From: Gammaproteobacteria bacterium
Lineage (GTDB): Bacteria > Pseudomonadota > Gammaproteobacteria > Natronospirales > REEB76
Direction of reading: 5' to 3'
Assembly: GCA_049698775.1 (NCBI GenBank)
Contig: JBAVYM010000007.1
Coordinates: forward strand, 17,657-81,656
Length of the DNA stretch: 64,000 bases
The position numbers and the translations under genes were made by a program. This document shows positions 484-48,551 of this stretch, one piece after another. The notes beneath the pieces are model-generated. The model was not told the origin of the DNA, made no database searches, and saw only the letters and a list, made by a program, of their open reading frames with translations. Every line of letters starts with the position of its first letter. Positions within the stretch are counted from its first letter, which is position 1.

Positions 484-1683
484 TTAGAGCGTATGGCTTA
501 AATCCCGCAAACTGAACCCGCGCAACGGCAGATCGAGATCCTTGAGAAAAGCCATGGCCTTGAAGCGCTCGCCCATCTCCTCCGGCAGAGTCAGCAGTTT
601 CACTTCTCGCGAAGTCTTCCAGTCAGTCGCCTGTTCCGCCAATTCCAGAGCCATCAGGAATTGCGCCTGGGTGGTGTAGCCCGCGAGCGTCAAACCTGCG
701 GCCGTGCCCGCTTCCGCCACCGCGGTGAAATCCACGTGCGCGGTAATATCCTGCAGACCGGGAAACAGGAAGGGATCGTCATGCGCGCGCTGGCGGTAAT
801 GGCACATGAGCGTGCCCATGTGGCGCTCGGGGTGGTAATAGGCGGCGCGCGTGTAACCGTAATCCACGAACAACAAGGCGCCGCGCGCGAGTGTGTCCGA
901 CAAACTATGGAAAAACGCCGGCAGCCGCGGACAAATCTCTGAGCGGTAATCCTCCACCAACGACACGGGCAAGGTGGCCTCGAACGCCCCCAGGGCGGCG
1001 TGCAATTCTGCGTGCGCCGATTGAAGTTGCCAGGCAAAACCGTTGCCTTTCGCAGTTACCTTGAATTCGTCGAAGCCGTCGTGCGACCGGCGAAAGCGGC
1101 TTACGGGCAGAGCATCCAGCACCTCGTTTGCCAGAATCACTCCGGAAAAAGCCTGCGGCAAATGTTCGAGCCATTGCACTCTTTCCAGCAGCACGGGCGC
1201 GCGTTCCGTCAACGTGCGCCGCTGGCGTTCACGCAGTTCCGCACTCACTTCAAGGATCAGGTAATGCCTCGGCAGGGATTTGCGGCGCGCAAGCTCCGCG
1301 AGCAGGTCCGCCGCCATGACACCGGAACCCGCGCCCAGTTCCAGGATATCGCCAGCACCGAGCGCCGCGAGTATTTCGGCAGACTGTAGCGCGAGGCAGC
1401 GGGAAAACAGCGGCGACAACTCCGGCGCGGTTACAAAATCCCCGGCCGCACCGAATTTGCGTGCGCCGGCGCTGTAATAGCCGAGACCCGGCGCGTACAG
1501 CGCCAGTTCCATGTAGCATTCGAAGCCGATGGCGCCGCCCTGCGCCGCGATCTCGGCCCGAATCCGCGTGCTCAGGCGTTCGCTGTGGGCGAGAGCGTCC
1601 GGCGAAGGCTCCGGCAGTTCCTGGATGGATTGGCGGATGGACAGCACGGGTTTCTGGTTTAATGAGCGCAGGCTTGAGGTCAC
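484..1683 (-). CDS. class I SAM-dependent methyltransferase, MidA/NDUFAF7 (DUF185)-like
   Basis: 399-aa ORF with ILELGAGSG SAM-binding motif. Family assignment is from memory of MidA-like proteins. Confidence 0.7.
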   Translation of the reverse strand: MTSSLRSLNQKPVLSIRQSIQELPEPSPDALAHSERLSTRIRAEIAAQGGAIGFECYMELALYAPGLGYYSAGARKFGAAGDFVTAPELSPLFSRCLALQSAEILAALGAGDILELGAGSGVMAADLLAELARRKSLPRHYLILEVSAELRERQRRTLTERAPVLLERVQWLEHLPQAFSGVILANEVLDALPVSRFRRSHDGFDEFKVTAKGNGFAWQLQSAHAELHAALGAFEATLPVSLVEDYRSEICPRLPAFFHSLSDTLARGALLFVDYGYTRAAYYHPERHMGTLMCHYRQRAHDDPFLFPGLQDITAHVDFTAVAEAGTAAGLTLAGYTTQAQFLMALELAEQATDWKTSREVKLLTLPEEMGERFKAMAFLKDLDLPLRGFSLRDLSHTL

Positions 1684-3505: not shown

Positions 3506-4828
3506 CTAATAAGCATTGACCAGATTTTGCCAGCCATATTTCCGGAGTGCTGGTCGCAGTGCTTCTGCACGCGATAACGCGCGTGCCGCCATCGCCGACG
3601 CCGGTCCGCAGTTACCGTTGGCGATGTAATAGAGTGCGGTCGAGAGTGAGGCTTCACTGCTGTCGCCGAGCGGATAACTCAGATCGTCCACCGCCGGGCA
3701 GGTGGGCGCGAAGCCGCTGAAATAATCTCCGAAGCCTGCCGCGTTGGTCATTTTAAAGGTCATTGGATACAGCACATTACTGCAAAAATTGAAGCCGTTT
3801 TCGCCTACCGGTTTGCCGAAGGTGGTGCTACCCACCGTCACCACGTCTATGTAAGGTTTTAGGGCGTTGATGAGCAGCTCGCTCGCTGAGGCGGTAGCGT
3901 CGGTGGTGATGATCACCACGCGGTTCAGGTTCAGCCCGTTTGTGACGGTCTGAAAGTCGAGTGTCTGATTTTGGTCCGTATGCAGGCTGTTGAAATTCAG
4001 CGTGGCAAAGGTTTGATTGGCGTCGCCGTTGCCGACGACAAGCGAACCGAGAAACTGCGCCACGGATAGCAGGCCGCCGCCGTTATAGCGCTCGTCAATA
4101 ATCAGCTCATTGTCGCCGTCCGACTGGAATTGTGCGAACGCCTGTTGCAGTTCGTCGGTGGAGGGCGTGATGAAATTCTGGAAAAAGAAATAGCCGACTT
4201 GGCGCCCCCCGGCGGTGAAGCTCTGCACCAGCGACACGTTCGGCTGGGTAATCACCGCCTCGGTGAGCGTAACGTTCTGCGTAGCGCCGCCGGGTGCCTG
4301 ATATTCGAGACTGATTGTGGCGCCCAGCTGCTCGGAACCAAAAGCAAATCCCAGCTGATTATTGGCAATGAGCGTCACCACCGGCGTACCGTTGATAGAC
4401 AGGATGTAACCGCCGCGCACAAAGCCGGCACTTGCGGCGGGACTGTCAGGATAAACGTCGGTCAACTGCAACTGGTTACCGTTGACGATCTCTTCGCTGA
4501 TGCCGACGCCGACGTACTGGCCAGCGCCGTAAAACGCCTGATTGGACGCCTGAGTAGTGATATAGCTGAAGCGGTCCAGCGGTTGGTACAGCAGCGCGTC
4601 CAGAAACGAAGTGGTGTCGCTGTAGCTTGCGGGATCAACATTGCCCGGCAAGTACTGGTTCCAGTAATACCAGGATTGCATGATGGCAAGAATTTGCTGG
4701 TTCTGGCCGGTGATCGAGCAAGTGCCGGCGGTGGTTTGCGCTTGCGACACGCCGCCTGAGCCACCGCCGCAACCGGACACCAGCAATACCAGCACACATA
4801 CCCATGAACCGGTCAGCAGCTTGCGCAT
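3506..4828 (-). CDS. S41-peptidase-like lipoprotein with PDZ-like segment
   Basis: Signal peptide with LVSGC lipobox. Contains a PDZ-like GFVRGGYILSINGTPV segment and an S41-like VVIITTDATASASELL region. Confidence 0.7.
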   Translation of the reverse strand: MRKLLTGSWVCVLVLLVSGCGGGSGGVSQAQTTAGTCSITGQNQQILAIMQSWYYWNQYLPGNVDPASYSDTTSFLDALLYQPLDRFSYITTQASNQAFYGAGQYVGVGISEEIVNGNQLQLTDVYPDSPAASAGFVRGGYILSINGTPVVTLIANNQLGFAFGSEQLGATISLEYQAPGGATQNVTLTEAVITQPNVSLVQSFTAGGRQVGYFFFQNFITPSTDELQQAFAQFQSDGDNELIIDERYNGGGLLSVAQFLGSLVVGNGDANQTFATLNFNSLHTDQNQTLDFQTVTNGLNLNRVVIITTDATASASELLINALKPYIDVVTVGSTTFGKPVGENGFNFCSNVLYPMTFKMTNAAGFGDYFSGFAPTCPAVDDLSYPLGDSSEASLSTALYYIANGNCGPASAMAARALSRAEALRPALRKYGWQNLVNAY

Positions 4829-4858: not shown

Positions 4859-5347
4859 TTATAAACCCTGAAGCACCACCGCCACAAGCGGCTGGCCGGC
4901 GGCGTCGAACGCTCGCCAGTGCTCAGCGAAACTCCTTCCGGTGAGCGGATGGCGCCGTTCGGGGGCAAGGTCCGTGAGCGGCTTGAGCACATAGGCGTAT
5001 TTGAGGATTTCCCGGCGCGGCAATTTTAGCGGGGATTCCGAAATCAAATCGCCGTATAAGAGCAGGTCCAGGTCCAGAGTACGGGGCGCAAACCGCGGAC
5101 CGCCGCGCGTGCGGCCGCATTGCAATTCGATTTCGTCCAACGCCGCATGCACACTGGCGGCGTTCTGATTGCTTTCGAACTTCACCGCCAGATTCAGGAA
5201 ATCGTCGCCCTTGAACCCCACGGCGGGATTGCGGTACACAGGCGACACGCGCAGCACGCCGAAGCGCTGGCGCAAACCCCGCACGGCTTCGCGCACCCGC
5301 CGCTCGGGTTCGACGTTGCTGCCGATGCCCACAAAAACCTCGGTCAT
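4859..5347 (-). CDS. folK: 2-amino-4-hydroxy-6-hydroxymethyldihydropteridine diphosphokinase
   Basis: 162 aa. VFVGIGSN and LDLDLLLYGD motifs are typical of HPPK. Overlaps the folB stop by 4 nt. Confidence 0.9.
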   Translation of the reverse strand: MTEVFVGIGSNVEPERRVREAVRGLRQRFGVLRVSPVYRNPAVGFKGDDFLNLAVKFESNQNAASVHAALDEIELQCGRTRGGPRFAPRTLDLDLLLYGDLISESPLKLPRREILKYAYVLKPLTDLAPERRHPLTGRSFAEHWRAFDAAGQPLVAVVLQGL

Positions 5348-5703
5348 GCGGATGGGCTGCCGCGTTCGATGCTTACGCCCACGCTCTTGCTGCCGCTGAC
5401 CGCGCCGGGTTTGTGCAGCGTGACTATCACGTGTTTGACCTTGAATTCGTCGAGGATGAGCTGGGCGACTTTCTCCGCCAGCGTTTCCACCAACTGGAAT
5501 TGCGCTTCACTCACGAACTGGGCCACGCGCTTCGCGACCGCCTTGTAATCCAGGGTGTCCTCGATGCGATCGCTTTTGGCGGCGCGGCCGATGTCGGCGC
5601 TCATGTCCAGATCGAGGCTCACGATCTGCTTGATGCGCCGTTCCCAATCGTAAATGCCGACGACGGTCTCGATGCGCAGATCGCGGATGAAAACAATGTC
5701 CAT
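5344..5703 (-). CDS. folB: dihydroneopterin aldolase
   Basis: 119 aa from ATG at 5703 (MDIVFIRDLRIETVVGIYDWER), a typical FolB N-terminus. The longer ORF 5344..5979 overlaps tsaD and was trimmed. Confidence 0.9.
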   Translation of the reverse strand: MDIVFIRDLRIETVVGIYDWERRIKQIVSLDLDMSADIGRAAKSDRIEDTLDYKAVAKRVAQFVSEAQFQLVETLAEKVAQLILDEFKVKHVIVTLHKPGAVSGSKSVGVSIERGSPSA

Positions 5704-9555: not shown

Positions 9556-11487
9556 ATGAACGACCTGAACGAAGACAAACAATCGAAGCTCAAGCTCCTG
9601 ATCGCCAAGGGCAAGGAGCAAGGCTACCTCACGTATGCGGAAGTGAACGATCACTTGCCCAATGAGATCGTTGATCCGGAACAGATTGAAGAAATCGTTG
9701 CGATGATCAACGACATGGGCATCCCGGTGCACGAGGAAGCCCCGGACGCTGATACCCTGTTGCTGACCGATGCGGCCGCTTCCAACGCTGACGAAGAAGC
9801 TGCGGAAGAAGCTGCGGCGGCGCTCGCCGCGCTGGACGCCGAATTTGGCCGTACCACCGATCCGGTGCGTATGTACATGCGCGAGATGGGCACGGTGGAA
9901 CTGCTCACCCGCGAAGGCGAAATCCGCATCGCCAAGCGCATCGAGGAAGGCCTGACTCAGGTGCTGTCCTCGGTGGCCACCTATCCCGCTTCCTCGGCAC
10001 TGCTGCTCTCGGAATACGCCGGCGTGGCCGAAGGCCGCACCAAACTCACAGACATCATCTCCGGCTTTATTGATATGAACGCCGACATGCCGGTGCAGGA
10101 AACATCTGCCCCAGTTGCGGATGCGCCTGCTGTCACCGAAACCTTGCACACAGTGGAAGACGGCGAGGAAAGCGAGGAAGAAGAAGTTCCGGCCAAGACC
10201 AAACCCGCCAAGGCGGGCGAGGATGAGGAAAGCGACGCGGATGCAGAATCGAATCCAGCGGACACCGGACCCGATCCGGAGGAAACCGCGCGCCGCTTTG
10301 CGCAGTTGAAGAAACTGCATGACAAGGCGGTCAAGACTATCGTGAAACATGGCACCGCTCACAAGAGCACCATCCGCGTGCGCAAGCAGTTAGCCGAAAC
10401 GCTAATGCAATTGAAACTCACCCCGCGCATGACCGACATGCTCACCGGCGGTTTGCGCCATCGAGTGGACACGATTCGTGCCCACGAGCGGCAGATCATG
10501 GCCCTGTGTGTCTCCAAGGCCGGCATGCCGCGCAAGGATTTCATCAAGAGCTTTCCTGAAAACGAAACCAACACTCGCTGGATTGACCGCCAGATCAAAT
10601 CCAAACGCAAATGGTCCTCGGCGCTCGGTAGACAGAAGGAAGAAGTGATGCGGCTGCAGCACCGGCTCACCACCATCGAACACGAGGCGTATCTCTCAAT
10701 CCACGAGCTCAAGGAGATCAACCGCCAGATGTCCATCGGCGAGGCCAAAGCGCGCCGCGCCAAGAAGGAAATGGTGGAAGCCAACCTGCGTTTGGTAATT
10801 TCCATCGCCAAGAAATACACCAACCGTGGCCTGCAATTCCTGGACCTCATCCAGGAAGGCAACATCGGGCTCATGAAAGCAGTGGACAAGTTTGAATACC
10901 GCCGCGGCTACAAGTTCTCGACCTATGCAACTTGGTGGATTCGCCAGGCCATCACCCGTTCCATCGCCGATCAGGCGCGCACCATCCGCATACCAGTGCA
11001 TATGATCGAGACCATCAACAAGTTGAACCGAATCTCGCGCACCATGTTGCAGGAAATGGGCCGCGAGCCGACGCCGGACGAACTCGCGGTGAAGATGGAA
11101 ATGCCCGAGGATAAAGTGCGCAAGGTGCTCAAGATCGCCAAGGAACCCATCTCCATGGAAACCCCCATCGGCGATGACGAGGATTCCCATCTGGGCGACT
11201 TCATCGAAGATTCCTCGGTGACCTCGCCGGCGGACGCGGCCACCAATGAAAGCCTGCGGGAGCAGACGCACTCAGTGCTGGCGAGCCTTACCCCGCGCGA
11301 AGCCAAGGTGTTGCGCATGCGCTTCGGCATAGACATGAACACCGATCACACGCTGGAAGAAGTCGGCAAGCAGTTTGATGTGACCCGTGAACGCATCCGC
11401 CAGATCGAAGCCAAGGCGCTGCGTAAACTGCGGCACCCGTCGCGGTCCGACCAACTGCGCAGCTTCCTGGATGAGTCATCGTCCTAA
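9556..11487 (+). CDS. rpoD: RNA polymerase sigma factor RpoD (sigma70)
   Basis: 643 aa with an acidic region 1, [12 protein letters not shown] (region 2.3/2.4) and [27 protein letters not shown] (region 4.2). Confidence 0.98.
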
Positions 11488-11509
11488 TAAACTTGCATCG
11501 TTAATCAGC

Positions 11510-11540
11510 AAAGGCCGCATCCAGTGCGGCCTTTGTATTT
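11510..11540 (+). terminator. intrinsic terminator of rpoD
   Basis: AAAGGCCGCA-tccag-TGCGGCCTTT (10 bp) followed by GTATTT. Confidence 0.8.
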
Positions 11541-11549
11541 AAACGGTAC

Positions 11550-11558
11550 TGTTATAAT
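11550..11558 (+). promoter_or_regulatory. extended -10 promoter element (TGtTATAAT) for the tRNA gene
   Basis: TGTTATAAT lies 18 nt upstream of tRNA position 1. No good -35 element. Confidence 0.45.
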
Positions 11559-11575
11559 CCGGTCGCGAAAGATGT

Positions 11576-11888
11576 GGGCCTGTAGCTCAGTTGGTTAGAG
11601 CAGGGGACTCATCGAAATGGTGACTCTGTGTTGAAAGATGCAGATGCAAACGGGATGAATTCAGGGAAACCTTCACGGCTTGGCCACTGGCAACCCTGAG
11701 CCAAACCGGCGGTACACCGCCGGAAGGTGCAGAGACTACCTGAGGGCTGCAGCGCCCTTAATAACAGGTTCGAGCTTCCCGCACCCTACCAGCACATGCT
11801 GCGGGTGATGAGATAGTCCACCCCTACCGGAAACGGCGGGAACATGTGAATCCCTTGGTCGAAGGTTCGAGTCCTTCCGGGCCCACCA
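11576..11888 (+). tRNA. ileX: tRNA-Ile2 (anticodon CAU, lysidine type) gene split by an intron; exons 11576..11612 and 11849..11888
   Basis: The joined exons give a 77-nt cloverleaf. Acceptor GGGCCTG pairs with CGGGCCC, followed by discriminator A and an encoded CCA. The other arms are D-arm TAGCTCAGTTGGTTAGAGCA, anticodon stem GGGGA/TCCCT, loop CTCATAA, variable TTGGTC and T-arm GAAGG-TTCGAGT-CCTTC. It is closer to E. coli ileX than to elongator Met (variable loop, C4-G69 and C5-G68). Confidence 0.85.
11613..11848 (+). ncRNA. group I (IC3-like) intron in the anticodon loop, no ORF
   Basis: Inserted between CAT and AA of the anticodon loop. A GTG guide 7 nt into the intron can pair with exon CAU. 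Core strings: GGCAAC (11689), GAGCCAA (11698), GAAGGTGCAGAGACTA (11723..11738) with GACTA pairing TAGTC (11814..11818). Also a CCG-GAAA-CGG tetraloop hairpin and a terminal G at 11848. Confidence 0.75.
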
Positions 11889-12527
11889 TTACTGACGGTA
11901 ACGGAGATATATCAGCGCTGCAACTGTATCCGCGGTCCGTGTGAATATTTCAACTGGCACAGACCGGGAAGCGCATGTTTGTTTTTCAACAAGCAGCGTG
12001 TGATGTTCATTTAATTCCAGCGGAATCGTCCCCACGCCATCCAGTAAAGCTCTGCCCTTGAAACAATAGACCAATAGAGTTTCAGTGGCTGCGCGCCAGA
12101 TCAGTGTTTGTCCTGGTTGTTTCACGATCTCGAGGTGACACGTCAGTCTCGTACGCAAGATCATCACGTTGAAATCCCGCACCAGCCCGGCGAGCAACCG
12201 GCATTGGGTGTGCCACTCGCCTTTGAAGTTGAACGGCACAAATCTCTGTTCGATGCGCTGGGGCGGGGCAGCGTCAAAGCTGAGTTCCATGCCAGCGCCT
12301 TCGGCCAGCAAGATGGTACGGTCATAACCAGGGAAGCTTGAAAACTCGCAATCGGTATCTACCCCTGCGAGACTCACGCGCCAGTCGAAAGGTTTGCCGT
12401 TCAACCCCGCGTCCGCGGGGGATGCCGCGATTTCCGTGGTCAACCCCAAGCCGTTTTTCCAGCGCATGCGGCGGTAATCGGCGAGAGTCAGAAGATGCAG
12501 GCCTGTCGCGAGCGTACGCACGGTCAC
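11889..12527 (-). CDS. HutD/Ves-family protein
   Basis: 212 aa with a YRRMRWKNGLGLTTEIA motif typical of HutD. The stop codon abuts the tRNA 3' end. Confidence 0.7.
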   Translation of the reverse strand: MTVRTLATGLHLLTLADYRRMRWKNGLGLTTEIAASPADAGLNGKPFDWRVSLAGVDTDCEFSSFPGYDRTILLAEGAGMELSFDAAPPQRIEQRFVPFNFKGEWHTQCRLLAGLVRDFNVMILRTRLTCHLEIVKQPGQTLIWRAATETLLVYCFKGRALLDGVGTIPLELNEHHTLLVEKQTCASRSVPVEIFTRTADTVAALIYLRYRQ

Positions 12528-12550: not shown

Positions 12551-13219
12551 TCAGGGTTGGCTGTACTTGGCCTGGTAGGCCAGTCCCATGAGCAGGATGC
12601 GCAAGGTGCCCAGTAACTGCTCGGTAAGGTTCACCCGAAACAGCACAAATTCCGGCTCTTCAAGTACGGCTTCAACCACCTCGGACGATTCGGCGAGATG
12701 TTCAAAACCGATGACCAGTGCATCGAACTTGAGCAACAGGTCCGCGCCCTGGCCGGGCTTCAGAAACGGCAGGCAGGCTTCCAGCAGCGCGCCAGTGTGC
12801 AGCACGCGTTCCCTGAGTTGGGTTTTGAAACGCCGCAGTGTCGCGTGGTCCACGTTGCGTTCCAGTACCGTGTGCAGTATGGCGACGAGCCGCAGGAACG
12901 ACGGCCGGTCATCCAGTGAATCGCTCATGAGTTGCAGCACGTTGTCGAAACTCGCGTGCTGGCGGTTCTTTTCCAGACCCGCGTCCAGTTCGTCGAACCA
13001 GCGGCCGAGCTCTTCCTCGTAGAGGGCCAGGAACAGTTCTTCCTTGCTACGGAAGTACAGATACAAGGTGCCCTTGGCGAGATCCGCATCGGCGGCGATG
13101 CGGTCCATGGTGAGGGCGTCGTAAGGCGTATCGGCGAAACGTGCCAAGGCGACTTTGAGAATATCCGTGCGTCGCATTTGTTTCTGCGCGTCGGTCACGG
13201 CTCGGTTGAGATTAGCCAT
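12551..13219 (-). CDS. TetR/AcrR-family transcriptional regulator
   Basis: N-terminal HTH (ALARFADTPYDALTMDRIAADADLAKGTLYLYFRSKEELF) is a typical TetR signature. Confidence 0.9.
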   Translation of the reverse strand: MANLNRAVTDAQKQMRRTDILKVALARFADTPYDALTMDRIAADADLAKGTLYLYFRSKEELFLALYEEELGRWFDELDAGLEKNRQHASFDNVLQLMSDSLDDRPSFLRLVAILHTVLERNVDHATLRRFKTQLRERVLHTGALLEACLPFLKPGQGADLLLKFDALVIGFEHLAESSEVVEAVLEEPEFVLFRVNLTEQLLGTLRILLMGLAYQAKYSQP

Positions 13220-13234
13220 ATACGGTCTCCCTTA

Positions 13235-43444: not shown

Positions 43445-44836
43445 TTATTTGTCGCTGAGCTTGCGTGTGAGTGTGTTGCGTCCGATGCCGAGCAATTTCG
43501 CGGCCTGCTGACGGCCGCCGCTGGTTTGTTCAAGCGCGGCCGTAATCAGAATTTTTTCCAGCGCCGCGGATGCGGCGGGAAAAATGCCGTTTTCGCCCCC
43601 CGCCAGTTGTTGTAGTGCCCAGGTCTGCAGTGCCATCTGCCAATCGTCATTGTCAGCATTCACGGCCTTGTGCTCTTGCAGCAATTCCACGAGATCGCCG
43701 CGATGCACGATGCGCCCGGACGCCATGAGCGTCAGCCGGCGGCAGGTGTTGCCGAGTTCACGCACGTTGCCTGGCCAATCCAGATCGTGCAGCGTCTGCA
43801 TGGCGTCGGCCGTGAGGCGCTTCGGCTCCAGTTGCAATTCGCGCGCCGCCAACTGCATGAAATACGCCAGCAGCAGAGGAATGTCTGCGCGCCGCTCGCG
43901 CAGCGCCGGCAGGCGGATTTGCACTACGTTCAGGCGGTGAAACAGATCCTCGCGGAAGCGCCCGTCCCGCACCTGCTTTTCGAGATCCTGATGGGTGGCG
44001 GCGAGAATGCGCACGTCCACCTGCACCGGCTCATGGCCGCCGACACGGTAAAACTCGCCTTCCGCCAGCACCCGCAACAGGCGCGTCTGCAAAGCGGCCG
44101 GCATATCGCCGATTTCATCGAGAAACAGCGTGCCGCCGTGTGCCTGTTCAAACCGACCCACACGCCGCGTGTTGGCGCCGGTGAACGCGCCGCGCTCGTG
44201 GCCGAAAAATTCAGATTCCAATAACTCCGCGGGAATGGCGGCGGTATTGAGAGCGATAAATGGACGCTGACTGCGCGGACTGTGGCGGTGCAACGCGCGC
44301 GCCACCAGTTCCTTGCCGGTGCCGGATTCGCCAGTGATGAGCACCGTAAAATTGGTGCCCGCCAGCCGGCCGATGCTGCGGAATACCGTCTGCATGGCCG
44401 GCGACTCGCCAATGAGTGTTTCCGCATCCGCGATTATGCTTGCGGTCACGGTATTCGGTGTCGGTGAGGATTGCAGCGCGCGTGCAATCACTTCGACCAA
44501 TTCATCCACATCGAAAGGTTTTGGCAGATATTCGAACGCGCCGCCCTGGTAGGCCGACACGGCGCTTTGCAGATCGTTCTGGGCGGTGACCACTACCACG
44601 GGTAATCCCGGATGGGAGCGGTGCAGCTCGCGCAGCAATTCGAGGCCATCTTCGCCGGGCAAGCGGATGTCGGTAATCAGAACATTCGGCGCGGCTCCCT
44701 TGAGCGCGCTGAGCACATCCGCCACGCGGCTGAAATCCCGCAGCGTATGGCCGGCCTGTTCCAGCGCTTCACGCATCACCCAGCGCAGCGCGGGATCGTC
44801 GTCCACCACCCAGACCTTATGCGGTGTCGCGTTCAT
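43445..44836 (-). CDS. ntrC: nitrogen regulation protein NR(I), sigma54-dependent response regulator
   Basis: REC domain, AAA+ domain ([22 protein letters not shown]) and Fis HTH ([13 protein letters not shown]). Start at ATG 44836. Confidence 0.95.
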
Positions 44837-45911
44837 GGCTTGTTCCAATGGGAAGCAAGATGGAAAACACGGTATTGCCCGGCACGCTGGTGCATTCGAT
44901 GAGGCCGTCGTGTCGTCGGACCAGTTCCTGGGCGATGCTGAGACCCAGACCCGAACCACCGGGTTTGCCACTCGTGAGCGGCGTAAACAAGTGCGGCAAC
45001 ATCTCCGGCGGAATGCCCGGGCCGTTGTCGGCCACGTCCACACAGGCCACCAGACGATGGCGTGTGCCGTTGAGGGTGAATTGCCGCAAGCCACGGCTGC
45101 GGAAGGTGATGACGCCGCGCTCGTCCACGGCTTCGCGTGCGTTCTTGGCGAGATTCAGCAGCACCTGGACGATCTGGTCACGGTCCAGCTGCAGCTCCGG
45201 CAGGCTGGGATCGTAATTGCGGACGATTTTGAGTTTTGCCGGCGCCGCAGCCTCCACAAGCCGCGCCACGTGTTCGAGCGGTTCGTGGAGGTTGGTGGCG
45301 ACACGGTGCGAGGGCTGCGACGGACCCAGCAGGGTATCTACCAGCGCCGTGAGCCGATCCGCCTCGTGCACGATGATGCGTGTGTATTCGAGCAGCTTCG
45401 GATCTTGCAGCCGGCGCGCCAGCAGTTGCGCCGCGCCGCGCAGACCGCCCAGGGGATTTTTGATTTCATGGGCCAGATTGCCGGTCAGGGTGCGATTGAA
45501 CGTGCTTTGCTCAGTCAGTGCCGCCTCGCGGGTGATGCGTAAATGCCGGTCCAAGGGTGTCATTTCCACCAGCAATTCCAGAGCGCCTTCGTTTTCGGCC
45601 ACGGGTGAAATCGTGCAATCCACTACGATCGTGTGAGGTGTTTTGGAGGCACCGATCTCCACCGCCAACTCCCGCTGGGTGACAGTCTCGCCGCTGGCCA
45701 AGGCGCGTTTCAGGATAGCCGCGAGTTCGCTGGCGCGCGGCAGGTTTGCCGTGAGCGCCATTCCCCGACAGCGCTGTCCGTCCAAGTTCAGCAGGGTTTC
45801 GGCCGCCGGGTTCAAATAACGCAGGTGGAGCGCATCGTCCAGCCACAGAATTCCGGTGGTTTGGTTCTCAAGCAAAAGACCAAGGAAGTTTGAGGAATTC
45901 GATTCAGACAT
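44817..45911 (-). CDS. ntrB: nitrogen regulation sensor kinase NR(II)
   Basis: PAS domain, H-box (LAHEIKNPLGG) and HATPase domain. Start is 45911 (MSES) or 45920. Confidence 0.9.
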   Translation of the reverse strand: MSESNSSNFLGLLLENQTTGILWLDDALHLRYLNPAAETLLNLDGQRCRGMALTANLPRASELAAILKRALASGETVTQRELAVEIGASKTPHTIVVDCTISPVAENEGALELLVEMTPLDRHLRITREAALTEQSTFNRTLTGNLAHEIKNPLGGLRGAAQLLARRLQDPKLLEYTRIIVHEADRLTALVDTLLGPSQPSHRVATNLHEPLEHVARLVEAAAPAKLKIVRNYDPSLPELQLDRDQIVQVLLNLAKNAREAVDERGVITFRSRGLRQFTLNGTRHRLVACVDVADNGPGIPPEMLPHLFTPLTSGKPGGSGLGLSIAQELVRRHDGLIECTSVPGNTVFSILLPIGTSHERDTA

Positions 45912-45912
45912 T

Positions 45913-45929
45913 TGCACCATTGTAGTGCA
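45913..45929. promoter_or_regulatory. NtrC-type binding site TGCACCattgtAGTGCA
   Basis: Matches TGCACC-N5-GGTGCA in 11 of 12 positions. Fills the DUF4124-ntrB junction. Confidence 0.5.
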
Positions 45930-45937
45930 AATGCACT

Positions 45938-46468
45938 TTAACGGGGCGGTTTAGGTGCCAAAATGCTCTTTTGCTGTACGTAGAAGGTGACCGGACCAGC
46001 TGACATAGAAGCTCCATTCGCAGCGTTCAGCGTCGCGGAAGCGGTATGTTCGCCGCGGGGCACGTCCTTGAAGGTCACCGACGTATTCCCGGTCGGACCG
46101 ATGGTCTGACCGTCCAGGTGATAAGTGATGGTGTCGCCATTGCGCAGCTCGGGAGCCACGCTCACGGACACGGTGACCTCATGCGTATACCAGAGATTGG
46201 CTTGACTGCCGGGCGAGGCCAGCGTGAATTGGGTATATCCGGCCATGGGCGCCGTGGGTGGTAACGGTGGCGGTGCGGGCATGTCGCTGACCGAGGGCGG
46301 TGCATAGGTCTGGGTTTTGGGGAGCTGCACCTTCTCCGCGCCAGGGTGCGGATGATCGGTGTAATGCACGTTGCCTTGGTCATCCACCCATTTGTACACG
46401 CTTTGCGCCTGGGCAAACCCGGCGCCTAAAACCAAGGCCAGCAGCAGTGTGAATGCCAGTTTGTACAT
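45938..46468 (-). CDS. DUF4124-domain secreted protein
   Basis: Signal peptide followed by VYKWVDDQGNVHYTD, the DUF4124 signature. Confidence 0.7.
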   Translation of the reverse strand: MYKLAFTLLLALVLGAGFAQAQSVYKWVDDQGNVHYTDHPHPGAEKVQLPKTQTYAPPSVSDMPAPPPLPPTAPMAGYTQFTLASPGSQANLWYTHEVTVSVSVAPELRNGDTITYHLDGQTIGPTGNTSVTFKDVPRGEHTASATLNAANGASMSAGPVTFYVQQKSILAPKPPR

Positions 46469-46687
46469 GTTTGAAGCCTAGTCAGTTTGCCGTACCTGGG
46501 CAAGTGTCTGCCAAGATAAAATAGCGTCGTGCCCACTCGGATGTTGACGTTTTGTTGACTTGAGGTCATTAAACTTCGTTAAGGAAATCCATGCACGAAC
46601 CTACTTGTAAAAATGGACTGGACGGTCTAGTCTAAGCACTTGGATTCAGTCTAACTGATTCCCCAGTTAAGCACTTGGAATGATCTC

Positions 46688-46852
46688 AACCGCCCTGAAT
46701 CTGAAGGGTGGTTTATCGGTCCCAACAGCGCACCTCCCCGGTGCGCTGAACCGGCCCCGTTTCTCCCTTTCGGGGCCGGCCGGGCGTCTCCCCAAGCGCC
46801 CGGAAGCTTGCCGGCGTACCGTTTCCCCATCCCCCGGTGCGCCGGCTTTTTT
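46688..46852 (+). ncRNA. candidate small RNA: five tandem hairpins, four with CCCC-containing loops, ending in an intrinsic terminator
   Basis: Hairpins at 46688..46713, 46726..46748 (loop TCCCC), 46751..46779 (TTTCTCCCTTT) and 46780..46803 (TCTCCCCAAG). The terminator is at 46810..46846 (12 bp, loop TTTCCCCATCCCC) followed by T6. G-U pairs and the T-run fit only the plus strand. The 5' end is unknown. Confidence 0.45.
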
Positions 46853-46907
46853 ATCCCGATTCACGCGCACATGCAAATCCCGGTTCGGATACAAATGCGC
46901 ATAAGCT

Positions 46908-48317
46908 TCAAAGGCTGAAATACATGTCGAATTCCACTGGATGGGTGGTCATGCGCAGGCGCGTGACTTCCTGCATCTTGAGAGCGATGTAGGCGTCAAT
47001 CACGTCATCACTGAACACGCCGCCCGCCTTGAGAAAGGCACGATCCTTATCGAGGTGCTCGAGCGCCATGTCCAGCGAGTAGCACACCTGCGGGATATTC
47101 TTTTCCTCTTCCGGCGGCAGGTCGTAGAGATCCTTGTCCATGGCCTCGCCCGGATGGATCTTGTTCTGGATACCATCGAGACCGGCCAACAACATGGCGC
47201 TGAAGGCGAAGTAAGGATTGGCGCTCGAATCCGGGAAACGCACCTCGATACGCCGAGCCTTGGGGTTCGCCACATACGGGATGCGGATCGAGGCGGAGCG
47301 GTTGCGCGCCGAATACGCCAGCATCACCGGCGCCTCGAAATGCGGCACCAACCGCTTGTAACTGTTGGTGCCGGCGTTGGTGAAGGCGTTCAGCGCACGC
47401 GCGTGTTTGATGATGCCGCCGATGTAATAAAGCGCGGTCTCCGACAGACCGCCATAAAGATTGCCGCTGAACAGGTTTTTGCCGTCTTTCGCGAGCGATT
47501 GGTGCACGTGCATGCCGCTGCCGTTGTCCCCGACCAGCGGTTTCGGCATGAAAGTGGCGGTCTTGCCATAGGCATGCGCCACATTCATGACCACGTATTT
47601 CAGCACCTGCACCTGATCGGCTTTCTTGACGAGCGTCCCGAAGCTCACGCCGATTTCGCACTGGCCGGCGGTCGCCACTTCATGGTGATGCACCTCAGTC
47701 TTCAAGCCCATCTCCTCGAGCGTCAGGCACATGGCGGAGCGGATGTCCTGTAGTGCGTCCACCGGCGGTACCGGGAAGTAGCCGCCTTTGATGCCTGGGC
47801 GATGGCCGATGTTGCCCCCCGCATAGGCGGTTTCCGAATTCCAGCCGGCTTCCTTGGAATCAATTTTGTAGAACGAGCCGCTGATGTCGGAGCCCCAGCG
47901 AATATCGTCAAAAATGAAGAACTCATTTTCAGGGCCGAAGTAGGCGGCGTCGGCGACGCCAGTGGATTTCAGATAGGCTTCGGCGCGCTTGGCGAGCGAG
48001 CGCGGATCGCGGCCATAACCCTGCATGGTGGCAGGCTCGATCACGTCGCAGCGCAGATTGACGGTGGCTTCCTCGAAGAACGGATCGAGAACCGCGGTAG
48101 CGGGATCCGGCAGCAGGATCATGTCGGACTCGTTGATGCCCTTCCAGCCGGCGATAGAGGAGCCGTCGAACATCTTGCCGTCTTCGAACAGTCCCTCGTC
48201 CACGCTGTCGGCCGGCACGCTCACGTGCTGCTCCTTGCCACGGCTGTCGGTGAAACGGAAATCCACAAACTTCGCGCCTTCCTTGGCAATCAGCTCGAGT
48301 ACGTCTTTGGCGATCAT
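46908..48317 (-). CDS. glnA: glutamine synthetase type I
   Basis: 469 aa from ATG 48317 ([24 protein letters not shown]). Contains the adenylylation-site region NLYDLPPEE and other GSI motifs. Confidence 0.97.
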
Positions 48318-48351
48318 GGCGAACTCCGGGACGGGGGGTGTTGTATTACAT

Positions 48352-48367
48352 AGCAAGCCGTATGCCA
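48352..48367 (-). promoter_or_regulatory. sigma54 promoter of glnA (glnAp2 type)
   Basis: Minus-strand TGGCATacggcTTGCT, with the -12 element about 35 nt upstream of the ATG. Confidence 0.75.
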
Positions 48368-48427
48368 AATTCTGGTTCTTGTTTTCTGGCACTTTGCAGG
48401 CTGCACTGCGCCCAAAAGTAGCTCGTC

Positions 48428-48465
48428 TGCACCAATACGGTGCATACCTGCACCAACGCAGGTAA
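48428..48465. promoter_or_regulatory. NtrC enhancer: one full site TGCACCaatacGGTGCA plus an adjacent half-site TGCACCAACGCAGGTAA
   Basis: 48428..48444 is a perfect palindromic match. The second site is 48449..48465. They are centred roughly 95 and 115 nt upstream of the predicted start. Confidence 0.75.
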
Positions 48466-48551
48466 ATAGCGGCTTGTGCCAGCGATTCTTTCGAGAGGTT
48501 ATACTTGGCGGCCTTTGAGCCGGGCGGGACGCCAGCCGTTATCCTACAAAA

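Follow-up and report, generated by a model that had tools for sequence, protein, structure and literature searches.

A conserved small RNA with C-rich loops between glnA and ntrBC of uncultured Gammaproteobacteria and its probable TetR-type operator

Introduction

Small RNA (sRNA) genes that are linked to glnA or ntrBC include GlnZ, which is located in the 3′ untranslated region (UTR) of enterobacterial glnA, and NrsZ of Pseudomonas, which is located downstream of ntrC and depends on NtrC and sigma-54. Other sRNAs are characterized by C-rich loops. sX13, encoded at the polA locus of Xanthomonadaceae, uses 4C/5C loops to repress mRNAs in which G-rich motifs occur close to the start site (PMC3771888). 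The CcsR or cuckoo RNAs have variable stems and the fixed loop motif CCUCCUCCC, for which an anti-Shine-Dalgarno-like pairing was proposed (PMC4615179). Here we describe an RNA from a stretch of 64,000 nucleotides of an uncultured gammaproteobacterium (contig JBAVYM010000007.1; "the window" in the following) which is encoded between glnA and the genes DUF4124-ntrB-ntrC and is built around four hairpins, H1 to H4, with C-rich loops. These hairpins are a real, conserved and structured sRNA gene.

The new RNA is similar to sX13, which represses its target mRNAs independently of Hfq, in that both are gammaproteobacterial and strongly structured, with a row of stable hairpins that have 4C/5C motifs in their apical loops, including a terminator hairpin that itself has a C-rich loop. 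However, the new RNA has four conserved hairpins with five C-tracts, compared with three in sX13, and a length of ~215–240 nt, compared with 115 nt. Moreover, sX13 is found at polA and not at glnA-ntrBC, it has no known TetR-type operator, and there is no real sequence homology between the two. The CcsR1–4 or cuckoo RNAs of Alphaproteobacteria (RF02791 and relatives) share with the new RNA the compensatory changes in the stems and the conserved C-rich loops, and in cuckoo two to four hairpins are adjacent to each other, but the motif CCUCCUCCC is absent from the loops of the new RNA, and phylum and genomic context differ. While GlnZ is cut from the glnA mRNA and has the strand of glnA, the new RNA lies on the opposite strand and has its own promoter. 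In contrast to NrsZ with its position downstream of ntrC, it is encoded upstream of and divergent from DUF4124-ntrBC, and no sigma-54/NtrC promoter was found for it.

Searches against Rfam gave no match at gathering level for the RNA, neither in the window spacer nor in four homologous loci. The permissive matches were all below threshold and on the plus strand (sX13 with 23.0 bits and E = 0.032, Atu_C7 with 22.7 bits, CcsR1 with 22.5 bits); they belonged mostly to small-RNA families, C-rich-loop types among them, and stayed below the gathering cut-offs of 50 bits for sX13 (RF02232) and 65.3 bits for CcsR1 (RF02791). The RNA, which the original prediction from the sequence had called unannotated, is thus indeed uncatalogued in Rfam. 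Because both covariance thresholds failed, the motif CCUCCUCCC is absent and the locus is a different one, it does not belong to the sX13 or CcsR families, although it most likely works like them. We regard it as a new family of an already known type of regulator, with an unusual promoter context and separate from sX13 and CcsR as well as from GlnZ and NrsZ. A well-supported, previously uncatalogued family is thereby added to the few known regulators with C-rich loops (sX13, CcsR/cuckoo, RsaE, RepG), and the C-rich-loop design is extended to a clade of uncultured soil Gammaproteobacteria. The alignment and the covariance model described below are ready for use as an Rfam seed.

Results and discussion

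Structure and conservation of the hairpins

The spacer between glnA and DUF4124-ntrBC, as delimited by Pfam matches and sequence, comprises 439 bp (46469..46907). The original prediction had described five hairpins in it, and the minimum free energy (MFE) fold of the plus strand (−125 kcal/mol; z = −9.0 against 200 shuffles) reproduced all of them, with coordinates, loops, G·U pairs and final T6 as described. On this strand, H1 (46726..46748; stem 46726–34 with 46740–48) exposes the loop UCCCC. H2 (46751..46779; stem 46751–59 with 46771–79) has the loop UUUCUCCCUUU, in which CUCCCU is nearly invariant, and H3 (46780..46803; stem 46780–87 with 46796–803) has the loop CUCCCCAA with an invariant CCCCA. 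H4 together with its U-tail (46810..46852) consists of a 12-bp stem (46810–21 with 46835–46), the loop UUUCCCCAUCCCC, in which the C-rich motif CCCAUCCCC is kept, and T6 at 46847–52. G·U pairs are formed between U46787 and G46796 in H3 and between U46817 and G46839 in H4. With its GC-rich stem followed by T6, H4 is an intrinsic (Rho-independent) terminator by the usual criterion and marks the 3′ end of the RNA; a simple terminator scan missed it due to a loop limit of 8 nt in that scan.

A covariance model, R1, was built on the four-hairpin module and scanned against the window, against loci derived from a search with GlnA and against metagenome loci. The whole window contains a single copy (112 bits), and further copies with 93–158 bits were found in 17 related loci (L081, L084, L105, L106, L108, L111, L121, L130, L164, L170, L179, L186, L187, L198, L214/L215, L216 and L217). 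Two subgroups can be distinguished: the window, L081 and L187 have a variable 5′ domain, whereas the other relatives, forming the larger subgroup, have an AU-rich linker of ~35 nt. The covariation alignment comprised 18 sequences, the window and the 17 loci, with 34 pairs and thus 612 cells, of which 97.1% form a standard pair, compared with 34–44% in controls in which the alignment was slid. Changes on both sides occurred in 14 of the 34 pairs (55 cells), while any slid control had at most three such pairs, and none of 500 shuffles reached the observed covariation value. Compensatory changes were seen in six of nine pairs of H2 and in five of eleven pairs of H4. The sequence of the H1 stem is wholly different between the two subgroups with the loop CCC retained. 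Conservation and covariation in relatives, which the original prediction had proposed to look for, are therefore present. They concern H1 to H4, each of which recurs in the 17 other loci; the first of the five predicted hairpins, H0 (46688–96 paired with 46705–13, plus strand), folds in the MFE structure but is specific to the window and not conserved.

The loop cores CCC, CUCCCU, CCCCA and CCCAU..CC are nearly invariant, while the stems, above all those of H2 and H4, vary by compensatory change. This contrast supports the view, already expressed in the original prediction, that the C-rich loops are the conserved working parts of the RNA. The hairpins could also be thought of as an intergenic cluster of terminators or repetitive extragenic palindrome (REP)-like elements that has no function as RNA and is simply kept by descent. 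GC-rich stems are not surprising in a genome with 60% GC, and the distribution in the clade is patchy. However, each locus has a single copy and the rest of the 64 kb has no other, and neither the 14 compensatory pairs with their conserved loops nor a dedicated promoter with palindromes (see below) would be expected from such a cluster. Among the explanations considered here we regard it as the least probable, with hardly any weight.

Strand and ends of the RNA

The functional strand is the plus strand, and the RNA is an independent structured RNA and not the 3′ UTR of glnA, as had been proposed. In the helices of the alignment, 20 cells hold G·U or U·G pairs and none holds A·C; two loop-closing C·A cells, in L081 and L187, come in addition. 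After the stem of H4, six to seven of nine nucleotides are T in all 18 copies, compared with 0–2 on the other strand. A clear sigma-70 promoter of the larger subgroup, TTGAAA-N17-TATAGT, points along the RNA strand. The hairpins of this subgroup cannot belong to the 3′ UTR of glnA, because glnA and the RNA are kept apart by a separate bidirectional terminator, often together with a GNAT gene, whereas in the window, L081 and L187 glnA has no separate terminator ahead of the RNA region. The assignment of the strand is thus based on the G·U asymmetry, the U-tail, the direction of the promoter and the separating terminator or GNAT gene.

A molecule from the minus strand, either the glnA 3′ UTR or an RNA with GGA loops that acts as GlnZ-like sRNA or as sponge for CsrA/RsmA, would be consistent with the equally good folding of this strand, with the GGA motifs in its loops GGGGA, AGGGAG and GGGGAUGGGG and with the glnA of the window that lacks a terminator before the region. 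Nevertheless, we consider it very improbable: the ~20 G·U pairs would turn into C·A mismatches, no hairpin would be followed by a U-tail, the promoter points the other way and in most relatives the region is preceded by the bidirectional terminator or a whole GNAT gene. Fold energy was also considered as a criterion for the strand, and in the window the difference in z (−9.0 vs −3.8) seemed decisive. This criterion was dropped, since the 18 homologues fold alike on both strands.

For the 5′ end, the candidate sigma-70 promoter TTGTAA-N17-TAGTCT (46605..46633, plus strand) of the original prediction gained support from relatives. The arrangement TTGYAW-N17-TAGTCT is kept in three of three cases, namely in the window, in L081 (TTGCAA-N17-TAGTCT) and in L187 (TTGCAT-N17-TAGTCT), the latter two being the loci whose RNA most resembles that of the window. 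The start predicted from this promoter is at ~46639–46641. Alternatively, the sequence can be read as an extended −10 element, TGTAAAAAT, at 46606–46614. Judged from these elements, the RNA most likely starts at ~46640, or at 46615–46622 under the alternative reading. Position 46633, previously given as 5′ boundary, is the final nucleotide of the proposed −10 box. In the larger subgroup, TTGAAA-N17-TATAGT is located 6–13 nt upstream of a 17-bp palindrome that is described below.

Between the promoter and H1 lies the variable 5′ domain (46634..46725, plus strand), which contains a direct repeat, a small hairpin, an extra UUCCCC (46659–64) and the hairpin at 46688..46713. The repeat, AAGCACTTGGA, is found at 46634–44 and 46669–79 on the plus strand of the window and in single copy in L081 and L187; it looks like a local duplication that also brought in the extra UUCCCC. 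With L081 and L187, the window has no more of this domain in common than the first ACTTGGAAT segment. No open reading frame (ORF) is conserved across the homologues, whose copies differ by indels of 1–2 nt, in agreement with the earlier statement that a plausible ORF is missing here.

Distribution

All carriers of the RNA fall into one clade of uncultured Gammaproteobacteria, which are soil bacteria, and their GlnA proteins are 88–93% identical. The protein search delimited this clade to ~75 GlnA sequences with 87–93% identity, all of them from uncultured Gammaproteobacteria. The gene order in the clade is glyS-glyQ, divergent glnA, sometimes a GNAT gene, a gap, DUF4124, ntrB and ntrC, and it is retained in L081, L084, L214, L216 and L217. 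The position of the RNA is constant, between glnA (or glnA and GNAT) and DUF4124-ntrBC and convergent with glnA. R1 found no copy in 80 more distant glnA loci (L001–L080, from distant Gammaproteobacteria with GlnA of ≤82% identity, among the matches listed from the GlnA scan of genome contigs), and blastn with the spacer revealed no similarity in these loci. An exact look-up of the window GlnA gave no record. Six carriers including the window were found via GlnA and therefore independently of the palindrome search described below. L084, L214 and L216 come from soil and groundwater samples (for example JGI 3300061638). Metagenome-assembled genomes with the RNA are GCA_050739255.1, GCA_050261675.1, GCA_037025005.1 and GCA_036383255.1; it is absent from GCA_035690065.1, GCA_035701115.1 and GCA_027440695.1. 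In two of them, L081 and L084, the hairpin module lies on the strand opposite to glnA, with stems rewritten and C-rich loops and U-tail retained. Both also share an element of 22 nt on the 5′ side, ATGGACTGGACGGTCYAGTCTA, and a scan of metagenomes with the 18-nt core of this element gave 120 loci, 13 of them with the RNA.

Some loci of the clade show further peculiarities. L164, a contig of 5.2 kb, holds the RNA locus twice, in inverted and nearly identical copies (1399..1581 on the plus and 3660..3840 on the minus strand) that differ by single-base indels. This looks like a fold-back assembly artefact and not like a real duplication. Among the clade members without the RNA, the spacer of L205 (4990..5130, minus strand) holds what by eye appears to be the remnant of a GNAT gene, and in L082 another, different hairpin, at 4925..4975, is followed by a T-rich tail when read antisense to glnA. 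These two spacers suggest repeated remodelling of the region.

A putative TetR-type operator at the promoter

Two palindromes that the original prediction did not mention are conserved at the promoter, one overlapping it and one upstream. The first, with 17 bp (GGACTGGACGGTCTAGTC; 8-1-8, GACTGGAC-G-GTCYAGTC; 46615..46632), is a probable TetR-type operator and lies inside the promoter spacer. It is unique in the window and also present in RNA loci that were found through GlnA alone (L081, L084, L214 and L216, and as variant GGACTAGACGGTCTAGTCC in L217). In the window, L081 and L187 the palindrome fills the 17-nt spacer between −35 and −10, while in the other relatives it covers approximately +1 to +25, as judged by sequence and predicted starts. 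It stays on the predicted core promoter although the promoter geometry differs between the subgroups. At the variable position, each half-site has G or A irrespective of the other, resulting mostly in G/Y, in A·C (in RNA sense) in L170 and in A/T in L217. Due to the constant overlap with the promoter and the independent variation of the half-sites, the palindrome fits a DNA operator better than an RNA stem. A pure 5′ hairpin of the RNA was considered less likely in view of the A·C in L170 and because the best promoter of the window subgroup starts the RNA downstream of the palindrome. In the larger subgroup, the palindrome would also form a 5′ hairpin in the RNA.

Apart from the RNA loci, the 18-mer GGACTGGACGGTCYAGTC occurs at a distance of ≤1.4 kb, usually <300 nt, from a gene for a TetR_N+TetR_C_7 repressor in 59 of 107 metagenome loci. 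In many genomic contexts the sequence GACTGGAC-G-GTCCAGTC adjoins HlyD, OEP, MFS, RND-like or ABC efflux genes (metagenome loci L085–L204, for example L119, L109 and L104). At such efflux loci the palindrome typically follows directly after a TTGACA-N17-GAGAAT promoter, and some palindrome loci have a second palindrome, TTGGACTCATGAGTCCAA. The best relatives of the associated TetR_C_7 repressor in the PDB are 6g87, 8wrf and NalC (8ke8). We therefore propose that the palindrome is probably the operator of a TetR_C_7 subgroup which is not yet characterized. The half-site of the NalC operator has been characterized as AGAACTGT (PMC3290565) and differs from the palindrome of the RNA promoter, and a literature search with the palindrome string returned primer matches only. 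The palindrome thus looks like a TetR operator that is widely conserved, has not been described before and is distinct from the NalC site.

The RNA locus agrees with the TetR_C_7 (AefR/NalC-like) efflux regulons in the identical 17-bp palindrome over or directly downstream of a predicted sigma-70 promoter. It is unlike them in that the controlled gene is non-coding and neither a TetR nor a pump gene is adjacent. A TetR gene of the window (12554..13231, minus strand) was considered as the cognate repressor and rejected, because with TetR_N+TetR_C_34 (38 bits) it belongs to a different subfamily. The RNA promoter carries a perfect copy of a putative operator that is otherwise found at TetR-controlled promoters of efflux pumps across phyla, which suggests that TetR regulons responding to drugs or metabolites can recruit sRNAs. 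In addition, a usable operator motif is gained for this subgroup of TetR_C_7 repressors. The inferred link to TetR and its relation to nitrogen control would be the most interesting aspect of the RNA.

Relation to nitrogen control

Upstream of glnA (48340..48470, minus strand) we found a canonical sigma-54 promoter, TGGCATACGGCTTGCT, together with NtrC-type sites, for example TGCACCGTATTGGTGCA. Unlike the RNA, glnA thus seems to be under the control of NtrC. Near the RNA promoter there is no NtrC-type site of the form TGCACC-N5-GGTGCA, and a conserved GG-N10-GC is not present at the RNA. The sigma-54-like element at 46497..46512, listed in the original prediction as a candidate promoter, was rejected: it matches only the GG/GC core and is not conserved, for example in L084, and when read on the minus strand its spacing is too short by one base. 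The connection to nitrogen control that had been suggested for the RNA would accordingly be one of conserved position only, since its promoter shows no sigma-54 or NtrC signal. The RNA is strictly linked to the glnA-ntrBC nitrogen-control locus, yet no nitrogen promoter was found for it.

The second palindrome, TGACTTGAGGTCA (TGACY-N3-RGTCA, 13 bp, 46556..46568), lies between the RNA promoter and the divergent DUF4124-ntrBC. Among 126 occurrences of the operator palindrome scanned, 16 have TGACY-N3-RGTCA 55–62 nt upstream, and all 16 carry the RNA; no match was found in L081. This element may be the binding site of a factor that regulates the RNA, ntrBC or the two together. Together with the conserved linkage to glnA and ntrBC, its sharing with the control region of DUF4124-ntrBC would fit a nitrogen-regulated sRNA under NtrC and sigma-54 in analogy to NrsZ and GlnZ. 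We regard such a control as improbable, because the RNA has neither the conserved sigma-54 promoter nor the NtrC site that glnA has and the promoter of its relatives is of the sigma-70 type. Also, its position opposite to the glnA strand is unlike that of GlnZ, and its position upstream of and divergent from ntrBC is unlike that of NrsZ.

Proposed function

By analogy with sX13 and CcsR, the RNA is most likely a trans-acting, multi-seed sRNA. Translation of several mRNAs would be blocked by base pairing of its exposed C-rich loops with G-rich or Shine-Dalgarno-like segments close to the start codon. Transcription of the RNA is probably gated by a TetR_C_7-type repressor that would bind to the 17-bp palindrome in the core promoter, so that a small-molecule or xenobiotic signal, and not NtrC, would be the inducer. 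As glnA lacks its own terminator in the window subgroup, convergent transcription could there have a further effect, in cis, on read-through from glnA to ntrBC.

The RNA could instead be a sponge or decoy, with the repeated C-rich apical loops titrating an RNA-binding protein. CsrB and RsmZ are protein-titrating RNAs with repeated loop motifs, and the four to five near-identical loop motifs on variable stems of the new RNA resemble this organization. To our knowledge, no bacterial global regulator with specificity for C-tract loops is established. Furthermore, the characterized RNAs of the C-rich-loop type act by base pairing (PMC3771888, PMC4615179), and a role as sponge therefore seems improbable to us.

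A slightly better, although still low, probability is given to a main role in cis, in which convergent antisense transcription, or a duplex of ~200 bp with read-through RNA from glnA, would set the read-through into DUF4124-ntrBC and the stability of the glnA mRNA. In favour of such a role, every locus has the RNA between glnA and ntrBC, a separate glnA terminator is missing from the window, L081 and L187, and on the strand of glnA H4 has an A-tract before but no U-tail after the stem. On the other hand, the bidirectional terminator of the larger subgroup, often with a GNAT gene, isolates the RNA from transcription of glnA, and a role in cis alone needs no invariant loop motifs on covarying stems.

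We therefore return to the trans-acting sRNA, which in the window would be a free-standing gene on the plus strand of ~215–240 nt, extending from ~46640 (or ~46615) to 46852. In this explanation as a whole, including mechanism and repressor, we have moderate confidence. Several observations weigh against it. The 3′ module of the 18 homologues folds with equal energy on both strands (mean −73.3 kcal/mol sense vs −74.7 kcal/mol antisense). Of 11 GlnA lineages of the clade that were sampled regardless of the RNA, six have a copy; it is missing from the other five (L082/83, L205, L212, L213 and L206–211), so that the RNA is dispensable or easily lost. L081 has ~170 extra nt between operator/promoter and loop module (5170..5400, minus strand) with several hairpins, one of them terminator-like (GGCCATGAATGGCC followed by T6); this segment may split or inactivate that copy or may imply an internal promoter. 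The promoter of the window subgroup is weak by consensus, and neither candidate was called by the consensus scan. The assignment of the operator is guilt by association, and the cognate TetR_C_7 repressor was not found within the 64-kb window or in the short flanks of the RNA loci. Finally, a scan of the 64-kb window for duplexes with the loops gave no interpretable target; apart from the antisense locus, its hits were GC-rich sites scattered in coding sequence.

Going further, we speculate that the RNA could be a multi-seed anti-Shine-Dalgarno sRNA under a ligand-sensing TetR_C_7 repressor which is permanently placed between glnA and ntrBC. The signal would then reprogramme a regulon of mRNAs with G-rich ribosome-binding sites and, where glnA lacks a terminator, would throttle read-through from glnA to ntrBC. 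Although this is a rather unlikely scenario, it would, if true, directly link the sensing of efflux or chemical stress, caused by a xenobiotic or by a plant or soil metabolite, to nitrogen assimilation via a single RNA.

Genomic neighbourhood

All genes flanking the RNA are encoded on the minus strand and were assigned with Pfam. glnA (46908..48317; Gln-synt_N and Gln-synt_C) is convergent with the RNA, and its stop codon is 55 nt away from the RNA 3′ end. On the other side, the DUF4124 gene (45938..46468) is the first gene of DUF4124-ntrB-ntrC, followed by ntrB (44817..45920) and by ntrC within the ORF 43445..45094. A plus-strand RNA in the spacer therefore runs towards glnA and away from DUF4124-ntrBC. 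At a distance from this locus, in a region where ARAGORN detected no tRNA gene (11300..12100), a gap between ORFs harbours a group I catalytic intron on the plus strand (11601..11840; RF00028, full model, 69 bits, at the Rfam gathering level).

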